Assembly: GCA_947627675.1 (NCBI GenBank)
Contig: CANQWY010000002.1
Location: 108-64,107 of the forward strand
DNA length: 64,000 nt
Origin: an uncultured Bacilli bacterium
GTDB taxonomy: Bacteria > Bacillota_I > Bacilli_A > RF39 > UBA660
Direction of reading: 5' to 3'
A program made the translations under genes and the position numbers. Of the stretch, positions 3,518 to 63,899 are shown in pieces. The notes below the pieces were generated by a model, which did not search any database, had not been told where the DNA came from, and worked only from the letters and a program-made list of their open reading frames with translations. Positions within the stretch are counted from its first letter, which is position 1; every line of letters starts with the position of its first letter.

Positions 3518-4354
3518 CTACTTTATTAGATTTTTTGATATTATAAATATCATCCTATCTCTATTTTGCATATCTTTTAAAGATATAATTTCTACATTCT
3601 TTAAATAAGTATTTATTAAGTTTACAATAGCTTCTTTTTGCTTGTATCCTATTTCAAAGGCAATCATATATTTTTCTTTTATATTTTTATTAATTGTACT
3701 TAATATTTTTTTATAATAATAAAGACCATTTTCAGGAGCAAATAAAGCAAGATGAGGTTCATTCTTTTTTACAATTTCTTCTATGTTTTCATCATAGCTT
3801 ATATATGGTGGATTACTTATTATTACATCATATCTTTTGTTTATATTTTGCAACATATCATTTTTTATAAAATCTACTTCTATATTTAGATTTTTTGAAT
3901 TTTCTTTGGCAACTTTTAAAGCTTCTTCTGATATGTCAAGTAAAGTTACTTTTGTGTTAACCTTATTTATTTTTTGTTTTAAACATAACCCTATTGCTCC
4001 ACTTCCACAACCTAAGTCTAGTATATCGATATCATAATTAAAGTATTTATTTATGTATTTTATAGTATTTTCTACTAATTCTTCTGTTTCAAAGCGGGGT
4101 ATTAAAACATTTTTATTCACAATTAATTTGTTTCCATAAAAATTCGTATAACCTAAAACGTATTGTAATGGAATATTATTTCTTATTGCTTCTATTTCCT
4201 TTTTAAAAACATTTACTTTTTCACTTTCTACTTCTAAATCCAAATGTAACAATAGCTCCAAAGGATTTAAATTCAAAAGATCACCTAATAAAATTTTTGA
4301 ATAATCTTTATGAATATATTTTTTTGAAAAGACAAGTAATTCTTCTACTGTCAT
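3518..4354 (-). CDS. prmC: Release factor glutamine N5-methyltransferase PrmC (HemK)
   Basis: DLGCGSGAIG SAM-binding motif and NPPY catalytic motif. Lies immediately downstream of prfA, as in most bacteria. Confidence 0.85.
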   Translation of the reverse strand: MTVEELLVFSKKYIHKDYSKILLGDLLNLNPLELLLHLDLEVESEKVNVFKKEIEAIRNNIPLQYVLGYTNFYGNKLIVNKNVLIPRFETEELVENTIKYINKYFNYDIDILDLGCGSGAIGLCLKQKINKVNTKVTLLDISEEALKVAKENSKNLNIEVDFIKNDMLQNINKRYDVIISNPPYISYDENIEEIVKKNEPHLALFAPENGLYYYKKILSTINKNIKEKYMIAFEIGYKQKEAIVNLINTYLKNVEIISLKDMQNRDRMIFIISKNLIK

Positions 4355-5412
4355 TAGTTTTCTCCAGCTAGTTTTCTGGCTTGGTCCTCAGTAGTTAGGG
4401 CATCTATTATACTATCTAAATCCCCATCTATTACTCTATCTAAATTTTTAGTAGTATAACCTATTCTATGATCAGTTACTCTGTTTTGTGGATAATTATA
4501 TGTTCTTATTTTTTCAGCTCGATCTCCTGTACCTATTTTACTACGTCTCTCATTTCCTTCTGCTTGCTCTTTTTTTTCTCTTTCTAATTCATAAAGTCTA
4601 GCTTTTAATACTTTCATAGCTTGTTCTTTATTTTGAATTTGACTTCTTTCATTTTGACAAGTTACAACTGTATTAGTTGGGATATGGGTTATTCTTACTG
4701 CGGAATCTGTTGTATTTACTCCCTGACCTCCACAACCTGATGAACGATATATATCTATTCTTAAGTCTGATTGTTTGATTTCTATATCTACTTCTTCTGC
4801 TTCTGGCATTACTAAAACAGTTGCGGTTGATGTTTGCAAACGGCCATTTGATTCAGTTACAGGAACTCTTTGTACTCTATGCGAACCACTTTCATATTTA
4901 AATTTACTATATGCTCCATTACCTTTTACCATAAATTCTATTTGACTATATCCACCAGCATCTCCTTCAATTGAGTTATAAACTTCATATTTAAAACCTT
5001 TTTTTTCAGCATATCTGGTATACATTCTAAATAAGTCACCAGCAAAGATATTTGCCTCATCTCCACCAGCTGCTCCTCTAATTTCTACAATAACATTTTT
5101 AGAATCATTAGGATCTTTAGGAATTAATAATATTTCAATATTTTTTTCTAAATTTTCTTTTGCTTCTTCAAGATTTGCTAATTCATCACGTACCATGTCT
5201 TCTAACTCTTTGTCTTTTAACATTTCTTTTGTATCTTCAATGTTTTTTATTATTTTTTTATATTCTTTAAATGTTTTAACTACTTCTTCTAATTCACTTA
5301 ATTCTTTAGATAGTTCCCTTGTCTTTTTTATATCACTTAATACTTCTGTATTTGTTAAAGCATTTTCTATTTCATTATATCTATTTTCTATTTGTTCCAA
5401 GTGTTCAAACAT
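4354..5412 (-). CDS. prfA: Peptide chain release factor 1
   Basis: GGQ motif ([11 protein letters not shown]) and PVT tripeptide anticodon motif. 352 aa. Confidence 0.9.
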
Positions 5413-5618
5413 ATAATCTCTCCTTTTGCTATTTTGTATTATATCATATTATTAATTATTTTTGAATATATACATATTTTAAAGAATAAAATAACATAAA
5501 GTTAATTCTTTAGTACAGCTAGAAAAATTTTTCTTATGAAATTATCTTATTAAATATCTATTAAACAAATTTATTATCAAAAAGAGAATTTTTATTTTTA
5601 TTTTTGTTTATTATTTAA

Positions 5619-7284
5619 TCACCAAACAACAAGAGAAAGACGTGAAGCATTTTGCTTATCGCCTGAACCAGTATTGTATATAAAGCCGAAAATACCATTT
5701 TGATTAATATAATTATAGGCACCGCCACAATCAAACCAAGGGTAGGTAGAATTTACAAACTTTTGATAATCTCCATAAAAGCCAGCTGTTCCATCGGCAT
5801 TTGTTGCATCTCCTTTGATTCCAGCACTGCTTGTATATAAATTATAATATTTTCTTTCTGGCATAGGATTAAATCCAGAATTATATACACTATTATTTAA
5901 GCTTCCCATTGTTTTCTCAAAAGCACCTCCTACTGTATCATATATTCCATAGATGGTTCCGGTTGTTGATGCTCCGGTTCCAGCTATTTCTTCATAATAC
6001 TGATGTTGACAACTATTACTTATACTAGCACTTGGGCTTCCTCCACTACAGCTTGTCTTAAATCCACTATAATTATTAGTATAAATCTCTTTATTAGCAT
6101 TTTTATAATTTGAATTTCCATATTTTCCATATTTACTTTGACTTAAGTATGCCATCGCTCCCCATTCCGTATTCTTTATCATATGCGTATCATAATTTTC
6201 TCCGCTTAATCCATAATTATTGGTACCGTTAGTACCGTTTATTTGGCTCTTTATGTTATTAAAAAATGATGAATGACTTTGATTTCTTATACTTGTTTGA
6301 TTAGGTAATGAAGTTATTGCACTTATTGCTCCAGTTAACTCGAATTTGCTTATCCAAATTCCTGGTAATTCTTTATTTTCTGAATTACTTCTGGTTGTTT
6401 CTACATCACAACTGTTGCCCCAACAAAATGATGAGGGTGTATAATAATTACTTGGCGTTGTTCCGGTGTATTTACCTGCTCCTTTTTCGGTTGTAGTCGT
6501 ATTTACAAATTTGATATCGAATGCTCCGGGTGTATTGATACTTGGTGATGATGCTCCTTCTATTTGATAGCCATATTGATCCCTTAATGTATAACTATAT
6601 CTTGGGATCCATACTAACATTAAGTTTACATCATTTAAATCTATTGTTGTTCCTGATGCTGCAGTTTTATATGTTGCTCTCTTAGATGGATCTTTTATCG
6701 TTACAGCATTAGCCCATATTTGTTTATCATAGTTATACCAGCTATTATTTGTATTTTCTTTATCTGCTTTTGCCCAACTACTTCCATTCCAAACTACCGG
6801 GATCATATCTCCTACTAACTCTGGTGCATTTGGTTCATTATTGTAATAGTCTTTTGTTTCTACTTTTAGTTTCCCTTTATAACTTCCTGTCCCTGTAAAT
6901 GTTATTGTTATTTGTACACTTTCTCCTACTTTTAAGTTCGCTTCTTCTATTGTTTTACTTGCTAAAGTCCCTGTTGTTGTCGTACCGTTCTTTGTATAAC
7001 TATAACTTATATTTACATCTTCTATATCTTCAACATACAGTCTATAACTTGCATCTTCTATTCCTCTATTTTCTATTGTAAATGTATATGTTTTATTTAA
7101 TTCGATATTTTCTTTATCTGAACCATTTACTCCATATATTCCTATATATCTTGTCCCTGTTTTTATTGTTATTTCTTTTTTTGTTTCTATACTCTTACTA
7201 TATTTGGCGTAAGTAACCCCCCCCCATTAGAACTATTGTTAGTATTAGGGGTATTACTAACAATATATCTTTTCTTTTTTCCAT
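5619..7284 (-). CDS. Phase-variable SipW-signal/camelysin(TasA)-like large secreted protein, copy A (OFF state as sequenced)
   Basis: ATG at 7284 with an AGGAG RBS. It encodes MEKRKDILLVIPLILTIVLMGGG and then reaches a stop 8 codons after a C9/G9 homopolymer (7217-7225). Removing one G fuses it in frame to the 395-aa ORF 5619..6806, giving about 554 aa. The N-domain resembles TasA/camelysin and the C-domain is Cys-containing and G/Y/N-rich. Confidence 0.7.
7217..7225. repeat. Poly-G/C homopolymeric tract (9 nt) inside the signal-peptide region of copy A
   Basis: taaCCCCCCCCCatt on the plus strand. A 9-mer G/C run is extremely unlikely by chance in roughly 25% GC DNA. Its position sets the reading frame. 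Confidence 0.85.
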
Positions 7285-7490
7285 TTTCTTTCTCCTTCTA
7301 TTTTTATATCTATATAATACACTCAATTCAAAATATTTGCAAATAAAGTACTAAAACTTTTTAATAGACATTTTACAATTTTAAACAGGAACTATCATTC
7401 CTTTAAATTAAATAATTTTACATCTTTTAAATTAAAAAAGCACCTATTAATAATTAGGTGAATTAATTATACTATATATTAGTATTAATT

Positions 7491-34701: not shown

Positions 34702-36060
34702 ATGAATGTTGAGGTCCTATGGACCAACTTTTTACAAAAGATAAAAGAAGAACTATCTTCTCTAGCATTTGATACTTGGTTTAAAGATACAAAACTCTTT
34801 AAATTAGAAAATAATAAAGCTATTATTGTTGTTCCTATGCCTATTCATAAAAAGCATTTATCGGATAATTATGAAGAACAAATAAAGTTTATTTTAAATA
34901 CTATTACTGGTAATAATTATGATATCGAATTTTTTTTAGAAGAAGAAATAAAAGAAAGTACTATCAAACAACAAATAGAAGACATTCCTACTAATAAAGT
35001 TGATAATAAAATTAACAACAATCTAAATAGTAAATACTCATTTGAAAATTTTATAGTTGGAAATAGTAATAAATTTGCTCAAGCCGCAGCCTTATCGGTT
35101 GCTGAAAACCCTGGAAAAATGTATAATCCACTATTTATATATGGAAATAGCGGACTTGGAAAAACACATTTAATGCATGCTATTGGTAATTATATCGTTA
35201 AAAATAGCAATAAAAGAGTTTTATATGTAACAAGTGATCAATTTATCCAAGATTTTATCGGTATTAATAAAAAAGATAATACTGGAACAAATTTTAATTA
35301 TGTTGACTTTTTTAAAAACAAATATAGAAATGTTGATGTTTTAATAATAGATGATATTCAATTTCTAGGTGGTGCTACTCAAACTCAGCAGGAATTTTTC
35401 CATACATTTAATACTTTATATAGTGACTCTAAGCAAATAATTATTTCATCTGATAGATCACCTGATGATTTAAAACTTCTAGAAGATCGTCTTAGAACTC
35501 GATTTTGTTGGGGACTTACTGTTAACATTTTTCCTCCAGATTTTAATCTTAGAGTAGAAATTATCAAAAGAAAAATAATAGCTGGTAATTTTGAAAAAGA
35601 AATACCAGAAGATGTTATAGAATATATCGCTTCTAATATGGGAAATGATGTTAGACAATTAGAGGGATCTATAACAAGGCTCGTTGCCTATTCTGCTATT
35701 ATGGGGGGAACCTCAATTACATTGTCTCTTGCAATTGAAGCCTTAAAAGATTTTATAAGTAAAGGCATTAGTGAAAAAAACGATATTCATAGAATACAAA
35801 AAGTAGTTGCAGAATTTTTTCAAATTAGTGTTGAAGATATTAGAAGTAAAAAAAGAAGTAGTAATATTGCATTTCCAAGACAAATAGCAATGTATTTATG
35901 TAGAAACATAACCAATGAATCTTTTCCTAAAATAGGAACAGAATTTGGAGGCAAAGATCATTCTACTGTTATGCACTCAGTAGAAAAAATATCTCAAGAA
36001 ATAAAAGTTAATAAAGATTTAGATAATATAATAGAAAAATTAAAAAAAGATATTGGCTGA
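34702..36060 (+). CDS. dnaA: Chromosomal replication initiator DnaA
   Basis: 452 aa. AAA+ Walker A GNSGLGKTHL. C-terminal DnaA-box-binding domain. Confidence 0.95.
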   Translation: MNVEVLWTNFLQKIKEELSSLAFDTWFKDTKLFKLENNKAIIVVPMPIHKKHLSDNYEEQIKFILNTITGNNYDIEFFLEEEIKESTIKQQIEDIPTNKVDNKINNNLNSKYSFENFIVGNSNKFAQAAALSVAENPGKMYNPLFIYGNSGLGKTHLMHAIGNYIVKNSNKRVLYVTSDQFIQDFIGINKKDNTGTNFNYVDFFKNKYRNVDVLIIDDIQFLGGATQTQQEFFHTFNTLYSDSKQIIISSDRSPDDLKLLEDRLRTRFCWGLTVNIFPPDFNLRVEIIKRKIIAGNFEKEIPEDVIEYIASNMGNDVRQLEGSITRLVAYSAIMGGTSITLSLAIEALKDFISKGISEKNDIHRIQKVVAEFFQISVEDIRSKKRSSNIAFPRQIAMYLCRNITNESFPKIGTEFGGKDHSTVMHSVEKISQEIKVNKDLDNIIEKLKKDIG

Positions 36061-44662: not shown

Positions 44663-44764
44663 TAATATAATAAATGAAATTGAGATGTTTTCATTGAATT
44701 ATATAGATATATTAATCATAATTTTATATGAATCTATAAATTATGTACAATATATAATTAAGTA

Positions 44765-45335
44765 AATTATTTCCCGGGAAATAATTTAAAACTTTTTATT
44801 TATAGAAATTTCAAATTTTAATTTTTTAATTAAAAATAATTTGATAACATTTTTTAAGAAATTAATTCATTTATAAAAATATTATCATTATTTAGTATTA
44901 ATAAAAAATATAAACTCAAACTTGATATTTTTTAAAGATTAACGTTTCACGTGAAACATTGTATTTTTTTCTTATTCTTATCATTAAATTTTTTTAGGAT
45001 ATTATTTCCCGGGAAATAATTTAAAACTTTTTATTTATAGAAATTTCAAATTTTAATTTTTTAATTAAAAATAATTTGATAATATTTTTTAAGAAATCAA
45101 TTCATTTATAAAAATATTATCATTATTTAGTATTAATAAAAAATATAAATTCAAACTTGATATTTTTTAAAGATTAACGTTTCACGTGAAACATTGTATT
45201 TTTTTCTTATTCTTATTATTAAGTTTTTTTAGGATATTATTTCCCGGGAAATAATTTAAATAATTATAATGTTTCACGTGAAACATAAAGAAATAAGCAG
45301 TTATTAAATAAAAAAAATATTTCCCGGGAAATATT
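44765..45335. repeat. 235-bp direct tandem repeat (2 full units + partial) carrying alternating NBS and parS palindromes
   Basis: NBS ATTTCCCGGGAAAT at 44769, 45004, 45239 and 45319. parS at 44943 and 45178 (CGTTTCACGTGAAACA, 15/16) and at 45270 (TGTTTCACGTGAAACA, 16/16). Unit period is exactly 235 bp with near-identical units. Confidence 0.85.
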
Positions 45336-45391
45336 TTGAAATAGATAATATAAATAAATTGCTTTTTTTAATAGTTTATTATAAAATGTAA

Positions 45392-45473
45392 TCGTGCAAT
45401 AAATTTATGTGGAAACAGGTCAGGATCGGAAGATAGCAGCCTTAACACAATAGATTTATGTGCACTTTTTTTT
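45392..45473 (+). ncRNA. ffs: Signal recognition particle RNA (small 4.5S-type SRP RNA)
   Basis: Conserved domain IV sequence CAGGUCAGGAUCGGAAGAUAGCAGCC flanked by a pairing helix (GTGCAATAAATTTATGTGG / CACAATAGATTTATGTGCAC) and a T8 run. Located next to tadA and dnaX, as in Bacillus. Confidence 0.6.
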
Positions 45474-60243: not shown

Positions 60244-60873
60244 AAAGAAAAAAATAAAACATCAAAACAAGTATTATTATCAGTACTTGGAGTAGCAATT
60301 TTGATTGTTGCTGTTGTAGGTATTTCATTCGCTGCTTTTACTTATACTAAAACAGGAGTTCAAGAAAACACTATTTCTACTGGTACCGTTACTATGTCTT
60401 ATACTGAAGGTCAAAATGGTATAAATATTGAGAATGCTATTCCTATGACCGATACTCAAGGTAAGGCTTTAACAGGTGATAATAATGTCTTTGATTTTAC
60501 TGTTTCTGCCACTATCACTGGTAAGACAACTATTAACTATGAGGTTGTTGCTGTTAAAGACTCCTCAAGTACAATTTCTGATGATAGTATTAGATTATAT
60601 CTAGAAGATAGTGATCAACAAAACGAAGGATATGAAGAAGTATTTGGCCCTGCTAAATTTACTGGAATATCATCACCATCTACATATGGAGCCCCAACAG
60701 GAACGATGCAACTTGCACAAGGTTCGTTTACTAATAATGCTGATGATGGTGCTCAAACTACAATTACTAAATATTATCGCTTAAGAATGTGGGTTGATTC
60801 ATCTTATGAACTTACTGGTACTTCTCAAAAATATAAAGTTACTGTTAACGTCTATGGTAAAGGTCAAGATTAA
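60244..60873 (+). pseudogene. Camelysin/TasA-like N-domain paralog lacking a canonical start codon
   Basis: The open frame begins right after a stop at 60241 with a complete SipW-type signal-like sequence (KEKNKTSKQVLLSVLGVAILIVAVVGISFAAFTYTKTG) but no ATG or GTG; the first possible start is TTG at 60301, inside the hydrophobic region. The body resembles the TasA beta-sandwich N-region. Confidence 0.45.
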
Positions 60874-60995
60874 GATTAAATTAAGGAGAGCGTAAGGTCT
60901 TTTTTATTTTTAGAGATAATGCTAGAAGAATAAAGTACTTGAAAATAAAAAATAGATGATGTAGAATTTAAATATAAAATAGAAGGAGAAAGAAA

Positions 60996-62643
60996 ATGGA
61001 AAAAAGAAAAGATATATTGTTAGTAATACCCCTAATACTAACAATAGTTCTAATGGGGGGGGGTTACTTACGCCAAATATAGTAAGAGTATAGAGACTAA
61101 AAAGGAAATAACAATAAAAACAGGGACAAGATATATAGGAATATATGGAGAAAACAAAGAAAATATAGAATTAAATAAAGAATATACATTTACAATAGAA
61201 AACAGAGGAGCAGAAAACGCAAGTTATAGACTATATATCGAGAATATAGAAAATAGTAGTATAAGTTATAGTTATACAAAGAACGGAATAACAACAACCG
61301 GAACATTAGCAAGTAAAACAATAGATGAAGCCAATTTAAAAGTAGGAGAAAAAGTACAAATAACAATAACATTTAGCGGAAGTGGAAATTATAAAGGAAA
61401 ACTAAAAGTAGAAACAAAAGACTATATTAATGAACCAAATGCACCAGAGTTAGTAGGAGATATGATCCCAGTAACATATAATGGAACAAACTGGGTAAAA
61501 GCAGATATAAATAAAAACAATTGGTATGATTATAATAGAGGAGTCTGGGCGAATGCTGTAACGATAAAAGATGCAAATAAAAGAGCAACATACAAAAGTG
61601 CTCAAGCAGGAACACTAATAGATTTAAGTTATGTAAACTTAATGTTAGTATGGATCCCAAGATACTCATATACATTAAGACAATCATATGGATATCAAAT
61701 AGATGGAGCATCAACCCCAAGCATTAATACACCCGGAGCATTTGATATCAAATTTGTAAAGACAAGTACAACCGAAATGGGAAGCGGAAAATATAGTGGA
61801 GAAGAACCAACAGGCTATTTTACACCCTCATCATTTTGTTGGGGCAACAGTTGTGATGTAGAGTCGACGAGAGGGAGCTCAGGAAATACAGAATTATCTG
61901 GAATCTGGATAAGTAAGTTTGAGCTTACTGGAACAATAAGTGTAATAACATCAAAACCAAATGAAACAAGTATAACAAATCAAAGCACATCTTCGTTCTT
62001 TAATGCTATAAAAACACAGATAAATGGAAGTAGTGGAACAACAAATTATGGATTAAGCGGAGAAAATTACGATACGCATATGATAAAGAATACGGAATGG
62101 GGAGCAATGGCATATTTAAGTCAAAGTAAATATGGAAAATATGGTAATTCAAATTATACAGGAGCAAATAAAGAGATTTACATAAACAATTATAGTGGTT
62201 ATAAAACAGGATGTAGTGGAGGAAGTCCAAGTGCTAGTCAAAGTTCTAGTTGCCAATATACTTATAATATAGAAACAAATGGAACCGGAGCCAGTACTAC
62301 TGGAACAATATATGGAATATATGATACATCAGGAGGAGCTTATGAAAGAGTGATGGGGAACTTTAATAATGTGCTACCAGCTTCTAGATTTAATTCCATG
62401 CCAGAAAGAAAATATTATAATTTATATACAGGAACAATAGGAATCAAAGGAGATGCAATAAATGCAGATGGAACGGCAGGTTTTTATGGAGATTATCAAA
62501 TATTTGTAACTTCTTCTCAACCTTGGTTCCAACGTGGCGGTTACTATGGCAATGGTGTTATCGCGGGCGTCTTCAGCTTCTACTACAGCAATGGCGATGC
62601 TATCCACTACCGCGGTTCACGCTTTGCTATTTCTACTTGGTAA
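60996..62643 (+). CDS. Phase-variable SipW-signal/camelysin(TasA)-like large secreted protein, copy B (OFF state as sequenced)
   Basis: ATG 60996 with AGGAG RBS, then MEKRKDILLVIPLILTIVLMGGG, a G9 tract (61055-61063) and a stop 8 codons later. With G8 it reads through LMGGVTYAKYSKS... into ORF 61462..62643, giving about 548 aa. It is 90-95% identical at the nucleotide level to copy A over the 5' 150 nt. Confidence 0.7.
61055..61063. repeat. Poly-G homopolymeric tract (9 nt) in the signal-peptide GG(G) motif of copy B
   Basis: taatGGGGGGGGGttac. Identical in length and context to the copy A tract. Confidence 0.85.
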
Positions 62644-62840: not shown

Positions 62841-63899
62841 TTATTTACTATTATTTAGTTTAATTAACTTATAAAATTTATCATCATATTTTAGTTTTAT
62901 TTCATTATCCAATAAAATATTTATATATATAACTACTGGGTAGCCTTTTACTATATTTAAATATTTGCCATTATTTATAACTTTATAGAAATTATCTTTA
63001 TAGTTTACAATATTACCATCTAACATTTCTGTTTCAATTTTTATATAATACATATTAGATAAATCTAAATTTTTTGTGGATAAAAAATGATTTTTAGTAT
63101 TTTTAGGATTATATGAATACTTTTTATTTAGATATTCAACATAAAAACTGTTAAACCAATCATTTAATTTATTATATTTTTTTATATCAAATCTTTTTAA
63201 ATCATTAATCAACCTATTTTGAATAATTCTATTTTTATTTTCTATTTTTCCTTTAGATGGCACTGTATAAGTAGTAATTAAATTAATTTTAAGATTTTCG
63301 CATATCTTTGCTAACCTAAAAAGTTCTTCTTCTTTTTTATTTAGAATTGTATGAATATCGCAGTATATATTCTCTGGTATACCATATTTTTTTAGAATAA
63401 TATCTAATATACGTAAGTATCCTAAAAGACATTCTTCTGGCATAAAGTAGCCTGCTAATATTTCACCAGTAGCATCATCAATTGCCATATGTAATGAAAA
63501 ATTTTTATTATTCTGTAGCCAGTCGTTAGGGGTTCCGTCAATAATTATTAAAATGCCTCTATTAGGCATTGGTTCTCGTAAAGGATGATATGTATAATCT
63601 TTAATATTTTTATAGCTATTAGGTTTAGGCCAATTAAATTTTTTAAATAAATTTTCATAAAATGAATAACTTCTTTTTTTTAAATTATTTTTTATTACTA
63701 TATCTTGCTTATTTTGATTAAATATAATATCTTCATGATAGATATCCATAAATTGCTGTATACTAATATTTGGATAGTTTAATTTAAAATTTTTAATAAA
63801 ATTAATTTCTTTTATAGATGATGAATTATTAGATGGTTTATTTGATAAGCCATGAATAAGTGCTCTGTTTATATCTTTTTCCATTATAATTTTTGACAT
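62841..63899 (-). mobile_element. DDE (rve-like) transposase ORF of an IS element, possibly N-terminally disrupted
   Basis: Candidate catalytic D in LIIIDGTPNDW, a downstream acidic block, and GK-x-E (VPSKGKIENKNRIIQN) matching the integrase-core E region. The frame is open upstream of the ATG to about 63986, with an HTH-like stretch (GILTGYTKRQI) but no start codon. Confidence 0.5.

Follow-up and report, generated by a model that had tools for sequence, protein, structure and literature searches.

Putative poly-G switches in a lectin-fold protein family of uncultured gut Bacillota

Two paralogous genes interrupted at a nine-G tract

The window in this study is a 64-kb stretch of DNA from an uncultured Bacilli bacterium, with a GC content of 25.4%. 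Near its end, on the forward strand, lies a gene that we refer to as copy B. Its start codon, ATG 60996–60998, is preceded at a distance of 7 nt by a GAAGGAG Shine-Dalgarno sequence (AGAAGGAGA, 60981–60989, + strand, read directly from the DNA) and further upstream by a promoter-like element, TTGAAA-17-TAGAAT (60939–60967, + strand), which is a consensus match only and agrees with the consensus at 10 of 12 positions. From this ATG, the frame encodes MEKRKDILLVIPLILTIVLM and then enters a homopolymer of nine Gs at 61055–61063 (+ strand), as read from the sequence. In this G9 state the product is MEKRKDILLVIPLILTIVLMGGGYLRQI, followed by a TAG stop codon at 61080–61082. The corresponding short ORF (60996–61082, + strand) comprises 28 residues, namely the n- and h-regions of a signal peptide and the residues GGGYLRQI. 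A sequence-only reading of this DNA had described a run of nine Gs in DNA of about 25% GC, with the frame ending eight codons later, and both statements are confirmed.

Across the tract runs a long open frame (61054–62643, + strand) of 529 codons plus stop, in which the first start codon does not occur before 61462. When we replaced the tract in silico, this frame was fused to ATG 60996 solely at G8, yielding 548 aa, or at G11, yielding 549 aa; G6, G7, G9, G10 and G12 all led to a stop within 27–32 codons. The earlier expectation that removal of one G restores an ORF of about 548 aa is borne out, but the triple-glycine motif attributed to this product is not: the G8 allele reads LMGGVTYAKY, with two glycines, and three require G11.

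The tract of copy B is far beyond chance. A base-composition estimate predicts about 6e-4 G9 runs per strand, and the longest run of G or C in the 64 kb is 6, leaving aside this tract and its twin described below. With nine Gs, it falls within the range that we treated as hypermutable for homopolymers, i.e. at least 7 G/C. A role as a G-quadruplex was ruled out by inspection, as there is one single G run.

The twin is found in copy A (5619–7284, − strand), a paralogue with the same leader, which likewise stops after 28 aa as sequenced and would encode 554 aa at G8. Its tract (7217–7225, − strand) appears as nine Cs on the forward strand and as nine Gs on the gene strand, so that the reading frame is broken identically in the two copies. 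A 5′ block of 179 nt (60976–61154, + strand), spanning the ribosome-binding site, the signal peptide, the tract and about 30 codons beyond, is 98% identical to positions 7126–7304 of copy A, compared to 80–85% for the gene bodies. The block recurs in L035, an independent ENA metagenome contig (ERZ27249483) that represents the DNA locus of the related protein P0023 and harbors a third copy of the leader, again with G9 and out of frame. All three known copies of this leader (3/3) are G9, with no G8 or G11 allele among them, and a search for the exact leader pattern with variable G length returned no match in metagenome or viral contigs.

The proteins encoded by copy A, copy B and L035 differ by 15–30%, and each gene retains a stop-free frame of 529–540 codons. 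Over the 146 codons that follow the tract, up to the first internal methionine, dN/dS among the three ranges from 0.24 to 0.42, similar to the 0.29–0.36 of the C-terminal part. Judged by these ratios, the 146 codons are coding sequence under purifying selection, even though they would be untranslated at G9, and this argues that copies A and B are not dead genes. Synonymous divergence is lower at the 5′ end, with a dS of 0.15–0.27 in the first 40 codons vs 0.54–0.70 in the C-terminal part.

Copy B is flanked by two further features. Upstream lies an orphan ORF (60244–60873, + strand) that represents the other N-domain type of the family, without an ATG and without a C-domain; it matches the N-terminal halves of the related proteins P0024, P0030, P0038 and P0043 and is probably a recombination remnant. 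Downstream lies an ISNCY-like transposase gene (62841–63899, − strand; NCBIfam NF033594, E 8.5e-48), whose score of 163 bits is below the 250-bit cut-off of this model.

Domain composition and the variable 3′ end

An AlphaFold2 model of the 529-aa frame, computed from an alignment of 97 sequences, has a pLDDT of 92.9 and a pTM of 0.85. It is composed of an Ig-like β-sandwich N-domain (61135–61422, + strand; residues 28–123 of the frame) and a C-domain of about 393 aa (61462–62640, + strand). In a Foldseek search against the PDB, the top match was TaqVP, a DGR variable protein of Thermus aquaticus (E 1.6e-7), which identifies the C-domain, on the basis of the model, as a DGR-type C-type-lectin domain. 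This FGE-like C-type-lectin fold is shared by the DGR variable proteins TaqVP (5vf4), TvpA of Treponema denticola (2y3c) and Mtd of a Bordetella phage (1yu0), and it provides an affiliation for a domain that the sequence-only reading could not place in any family. At the sequence level, the relationship is faint: the Pfam family FGE-sulfatase matched 3 of 25 relatives weakly, with a best E of 0.0017, and a profile of the family had no sequence-level match to any PDB chain. Unlike the known DGR variable proteins, members of this family possess N-domains of their own, which are Ig-like, and signal peptides of a TasA-like or prepilin-like type, and they are multicopy.

The N-terminal part had previously been taken for a camelysin/TasA-like domain behind a SipW-type signal peptide. 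There is some likeness, in that the hydrophobic core of the copy B signal peptide is followed by GG-V-TYA-K-Y and then by a ‘TGT’ strand; the motif following the core in TasA is GGGTWAAF. Unlike in TasA and camelysin, however, most of the protein is made up of a lectin-fold domain that is unrelated, and the copy B protein and 25 relatives have no match to Peptidase_M73 at E ≤ 1 in Pfam or NCBIfam. The N-domain has weak matches only in these databases (DUF11, HYDIN/VesB Ig and CARDB), and a fold search with it returned generic Ig-like sandwiches only and no TasA-like fold. We therefore reject membership in the camelysin/TasA family. The proposed signal-peptide type fares slightly better, as TIGR04088 (SipW-dependent signal) matches 2 of the 25 relatives weakly (best E 0.069); the copy B protein itself has no such match.

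With its frame repaired, the protein has more than 2,268 relatives in the databases, and most of the 120 listed carry no Pfam domain. Among about 20 close relatives (64–100% identity), 17 are annotated solely from an internal methionine, with lengths of about 390–420 aa, which suggests that these genes, too, are headless in their sequenced form. More distant relatives are full-length (550–630 aa) and begin with a signal peptide, after which comes a (T/S)YA-x-(F/Y) motif. The best match to the protein of the window in the genome collection is 55–56% identical. When the N-terminal 156 aa served as a protein query for ‘on’ alleles, a single match was returned and known relatives such as P0002 were missed; this result is uninformative and does not speak for the absence of such alleles.

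In copy B, the 3′ end of the gene differs markedly in composition from the remainder. The last 138 nt (62506–62643, + strand) resemble a DGR variable region (VR): they are GC-rich (49%), with a GC3 of 0.48 vs 0.18 and an A content of 19% vs 44% in the rest of the gene. This segment aligns in frame with the pairs of VR and template repeat (TR) in the related loci L042 and L049, and has variable codons of the form NNC (TAC, GGC, ATC, AGC, CAC) at sites that are AAY in the related templates. As in DGR variable proteins, the variable stretch of the family is located at the extreme C-terminus: among 25 close relatives, pairwise identity is 31% in the C-terminal stretch of 24 residues vs 72% in the C-domain. 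A similar jump in 3′ composition occurs in 44 of 106 family genes, including 13 of the 22 tract-bearing genes in which both ends are complete; the 3′ end of copy A is AT-rich and lacks this footprint.

DGR cassettes are present in relatives. The family gene of L042 has a 3′ end (4292–4391) that matches a downstream segment (5481–5580) at 88%, and all mismatches (12/12) are an A in the downstream copy; in L049, the same is true of 95% of 19 mismatches. The mismatches between VR and TR are thus confined, or almost confined, to template adenines, as in DGR systems. L042 also has genes for bAvd (E 4.3e-22) and for a reverse transcriptase (RVT_1, E 1.7e-18), the latter with the motif IGNYTSQ. The variation is visible between L044 and L047, one locus from two samples, which have at least 38 differences within 4678–4767, a few more at their poly-G tract and about nine elsewhere in the 2-kb gene. 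Within the 64-kb window, we found no template repeat, Avd or reverse transcriptase, and its one Y-x-DD motif sits in an unrelated frame of 456 aa. Because the window contains neither a template nor a reverse transcriptase, we infer the status of copy B as a current DGR target from its 3′ footprint, and on balance lean towards it.

Poly-G tracts across the family

To place the tract of copy B in context, we collected 115 related loci (636,654 nt, gene always on the + strand; L numbers) from genome and metagenome collections. They derive from uncultured gut Bacilli, Erysipelotrichaceae, ‘Clostridia’ MAGs and human-gut contigs; a phage origin of the family was rejected, as no relatives were found among viral contigs. 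On the gene strand, these loci contain 26 runs of at least seven Gs vs one run of at least seven Cs, where base composition predicts about one run. The G runs lie at the 5′ ends of the genes, 280–1,730 nt ahead of the conserved C-domain, the exceptions being a G7 in L051, which resembles a stretch of a ribosome-binding site, and two tracts on contigs that break off before the gene body. Of the 90 family genes whose 5′ end is complete, 24 carry a tract there. Tract lengths are 7 (n=3), 8 (n=5), 9 (n=8), 10 (n=7), 11 (n=4) and 12 (n=1), with a mode of nine.

These tracts come in three architectures. In the first, exemplified by the two genes of the window and by L016, L073, L068 and L082, the tract is part of the signal-peptide coding region. 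In L016 (39% identity) and L073, it is located at the end of the signal-peptide h-region, the same position as in copy B, and in L068 a G9 is found within a prepilin-like leader. In the second, it occupies the spacer of a sigma-70-type promoter (L004, L005, L063, L067, L075, L070 and L096), assigned by consensus matches only, for instance in the forms TTGACA-9 nt-Gn-TAGAAT (L004, L005) and TTGACT-t-G8-7 nt-TATAAT (L063, L067, L075). In the third, it is part of a short leader ORF, 100–175 nt upstream of the gene. In the leader type of L044 and L039, a terminator-like hairpin, likewise a consensus match only, lies downstream of the tract.

Tract length varies between closely related sequences. 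L044 has G10 and L047 G11 at their common locus, and the surrounding 300 nt are otherwise identical. The tandem paralogues of L036 have G9 and G10 in shared flanks; L039, L054 and L040 carry G9, G10 and G11, respectively, and L004 and L005 carry G12 and G10. Tracts within coding sequences are in frame, i.e. on, in L016 (G9), L068 (G9) and L073 (G7), and out of frame, i.e. off, in copy A, copy B, L035 and L082, which has two copies with G11 each. In L082, the on lengths are 9 and 12, an offset unlike that of copy B. Together, the length polymorphism and the mixture of in-frame and out-of-frame states in the family are the signature of slipped-strand contingency loci.

A candidate contingency switch, its alternatives and its parallels

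We consider it likely that the G9 of copy B (on lengths G8 and G11) is a contingency switch that operates by slipped-strand mispairing and gates the translation of a secreted or surface protein. The architecture of a contingency gene, as proposed from the sequence alone, is upheld by the intact upstream signals, the selected downstream frame and the polymorphic, partly in-frame tracts of the family. As all three copies of the leader are G9, we infer the switching at the copy B locus itself. With its transcription and initiation signals intact, copy B at G9 would be translated through the n- and h-regions of the signal peptide up to the stop eight codons past the tract, leaving the 1.56-kb body untranslated. 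If replication removed one G or added two, the signal peptide would be joined to the body, and individual cells would flip between off (G9, G10) and on (G8, G11) by replication slippage. The sequenced population would then be off at both paralogues. In the on state, a precursor of 548 or 549 aa would be made, consisting of a signal peptide with the TYA-K-Y motif, an Ig-like stalk and a C-type-lectin ligand-binding domain; we presume that it is exported and either displayed or released, and that it has an adhesin-like role at the cell surface.

Three other explanations have to be weighed against such a switch. The homopolymer may have been misassembled, the true tract being G8 (or G11) and the genes intact. 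After all, the contig is metagenome-assembled, judging by its relatives, homopolymers are error-prone, and one G fewer results in a perfect ORF; yet the same G9 is seen twice in this contig and once more in the unrelated ENA assembly of L035, the 17 headless close relatives come from other assemblies, and tracts of 7–12 in relatives are in frame at some loci and out of frame at others, which makes an error quite improbable. Still less credible is the view that both copies are plain pseudogenes, inactivated by frameshift and decaying. They are indeed out of frame as sequenced, and the transposase gene and the orphan N-domain fragment beside copy B indicate a rearranged locus. Decay is, however, hard to reconcile with stop-free frames of 529–540 codons in three copies that differ by 15–30% in a genome of 25% GC, with the low dN/dS of a stretch that would be untranslated, with an intact promoter-like site, ribosome-binding site and ATG, and with a frame that gives a confident structural model.

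A fixed G9 could also be subject to programmed, non-heritable recoding, be it RNA polymerase slippage or +1 ribosomal frameshifting, resulting in constant low expression. This would fit the fact that the three leaders have exactly nine Gs each, that the 179-nt block is near-invariant while the bodies differ by 15–30%, that dS is reduced in the first 40 codons and that nearly all close relatives are annotated headless. Nonetheless, we regard recoding as unlikely, if less so than the two preceding explanations. Other tracts within coding sequences are in frame (L016, L068, L073) or differently offset (L082), and the length of the tract in the DNA differs between orthologous loci. Many tracts, moreover, are located in promoter spacers or leaders, beyond the reach of recoding; those in promoter spacers can act solely through DNA length, which argues against an obligatory recoding design. 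Lastly, the nearest analogue studied by experiment was found to switch by replication slippage (PMC9187656).

This analogue is found in Bifidobacterium breve UCC2003, in two genes for sortase-dependent pili, bbr_0113 and bbr_1889, that switch when replication slips at an intragenic G tract; the Sec signal and the body of these pilins are split by the tract, the genes are mostly off, and slippage restores expression (Penno et al., 2022; PMC9187656). The parallels to copy B are close: both are found in Gram-positive gut commensals, both have a Sec signal and a body in two ORFs parted by a G tract, both are off in the reference state, and both have a strong start upstream and a downstream ORF without a usable start. 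By contrast, B. breve has a high-GC genome, and its switched proteins are sortase-assembled LPXTG pilins without a DGR, whereas copy B encodes a DGR-type lectin-fold protein without LPXTG in a genome of 25% GC, and its tract recurs across a large paralogous family, promoters included.

More distant parallels exist in pathogens, in which repeat-tract phase variation is best described. In Neisseria gonorrhoeae, pilC has a G run and opa has CTCTT repeats in the signal-peptide coding region, the same placement as in copy B. To our knowledge, phase variation in gut commensals is known mostly from invertible promoters and one bifidobacterial pilus case. The polyG/C loci of Campylobacter jejuni have G tracts of 7–12 with a mode of nine, as in the present family, and, like copy B, are switched on and off at the level of translation through frameshift (Bayliss et al., 2012; PMC3401435). 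In that species, insertions predominate among the mutations of G8 tracts and deletions among those of G11 tracts (PMC3401435), a bias that would explain a mostly-off gene with on lengths of 8 and 11. The C. jejuni and Neisseria loci differ in that they belong to other phyla, encode unrelated proteins and are not coupled to a retroelement-diversified domain.

Such a coupling would set the present family apart. If the binding tip is the target of a DGR elsewhere in the genome, expression (through the poly-G tract) and binding specificity (through the DGR) would vary independently, and a single gene appears to combine two mechanisms of hypervariation. In its general form, the idea is that of a two-tier system, i.e. 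a multicopy family of exported lectin-fold proteins with DGR-rewritten tips, each copy separately gated by a poly-G tract in its signal peptide, leader ORF or promoter spacer; we give this an even chance. Taken separately, both poly-G contingency switches and DGRs are familiar. Our literature searches gave no report that connects DGR targets with repeat-mediated phase variation, none on phase-variable TasA-like proteins and none on this protein family, which is not searchable as such.

The poly-G switch, as we propose it, is a recurrent feature of a very large protein family from uncultured gut Bacillota of low GC, and many members of this family would be mis-annotated as headless proteins of about 400 aa. 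With DGR targets as the switched proteins, the two fastest known targeted mechanisms of bacterial variation would act on the same genes. If so, off copies could be diversified ‘offline’ and switched on later, allowing for combinatorial bet-hedging over which copies are displayed and what each of them binds. The family thereby offers a testable system for why DGR targets need on/off control, with immune pressure (IgA), phage and the cost of display as possible reasons. Both kinds of variation could be quantified in vivo from metagenomic read data; in L044 and L047, both hot spots already differ between two samples of one gene.

Homopolymeric G tracts upstream of family genes

At seven loci related to copy B, one of two surface-protein genes of the window that carry a G9 tract, G8–G12 tracts separate the −35-like from the −10-like hexamers of family genes (L004:3340-3351, L005:3334-3343, L063:1850-1857, L067:2287-2294, L070:1955-1962, L075:23-30 and L096:2153-2162). 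Tracts of this promoter-spacer type would switch the genes at the level of transcription. When L004 is compared with its paralogue L005 (L004:3383-3450), 8 nt are missing from L004 directly after the start codon, namely GAAGAAAA, a single unit of a short direct repeat, so that the ATG is out of frame. The loss is a second lesion of slippage type in this gene.

In one leader type, the tract instead lies within a short ORF, 100–175 nt 5' of the family gene (L044:2755-2843 and L039:1487-1562; also L036, L040, L047 and L054), and a strong terminator-like hairpin separates the two. Such a layout might serve as a phase-variable attenuator, or else reflect a split signal peptide; the leader peptide of this type, ..NNCS-GGG-(Y/H)FR.., is also the in-frame N-terminus of the protein relatives P0030 and P0038.

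In a further family member (L068:716-2275), the TYA-type signal is replaced by a prepilin-type N-terminus (..KGFTLIELLAVIVILAV..), whose short leader, ahead of the cleavage motif, contains G9 in frame.

DGR cassettes and the 3' end of copy B

Complete DGR cassettes adjoin family genes at two loci, L042:2539-7144 and L049:2689-4936. In the former, the variable region (VR; 4292-4391) differs from the template repeat (TR; 5481-5580) at 12 positions, at all of which the TR base is A, and the genes for the accessory protein bAvd (5739-6095) and the reverse transcriptase (6080-7144) lie 3' of the VR/TR pair; L049 contains one VR and two TR-like copies. In the window, the 3'-terminal 138 nt of copy B (62506-62643) have a GC content of 49%, an A content of 19% versus 44%, and abundant NNC codons, a 3' end that its inverted paralogue, copy A, does not have. 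This segment resembles a DGR variable region, the template of which would lie elsewhere in the genome.

Genomic setting of the two copies

The window is centered on oriC (~34250), close to dnaA (34702-36060), which is followed by dnaN, recF and gyrB; GC skew changes sign at 32–36 kb. Copies A and B are inverted relative to each other and both co-directional with replication, and their tracts (7217-7225 and 61055-61063) are nearly symmetric about the origin, at distances of 27.0 and 26.8 kb. Recombination between the two copies would invert the origin region.

Upstream of copy B, an orphan ORF (60244-60873, +) encodes the other N-domain type of the family. It begins ~10 nt past the tatD stop codon, ends just short of the copy B promoter, and has neither an ATG nor a ribosome-binding site, its only candidate start being an internal TTG at 60301. 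At the related locus L035, just its final ~25 nt are kept. The ORF is probably a leftover of cassette replacement. Directly downstream of copy B lies an ISNCY-like transposase gene (62841-63899, −), whose match to NF033594 (E 8.5e-48) falls under the curated cut-off.

Elsewhere in the window, two tandem repeats of 235 nt, 97% identical, and a partial third copy (44755-45387) immediately precede the small SRP RNA gene (45390-45471, Rfam) on its 5' side, each copy bearing a TTTCCCGGGAAA palindrome.
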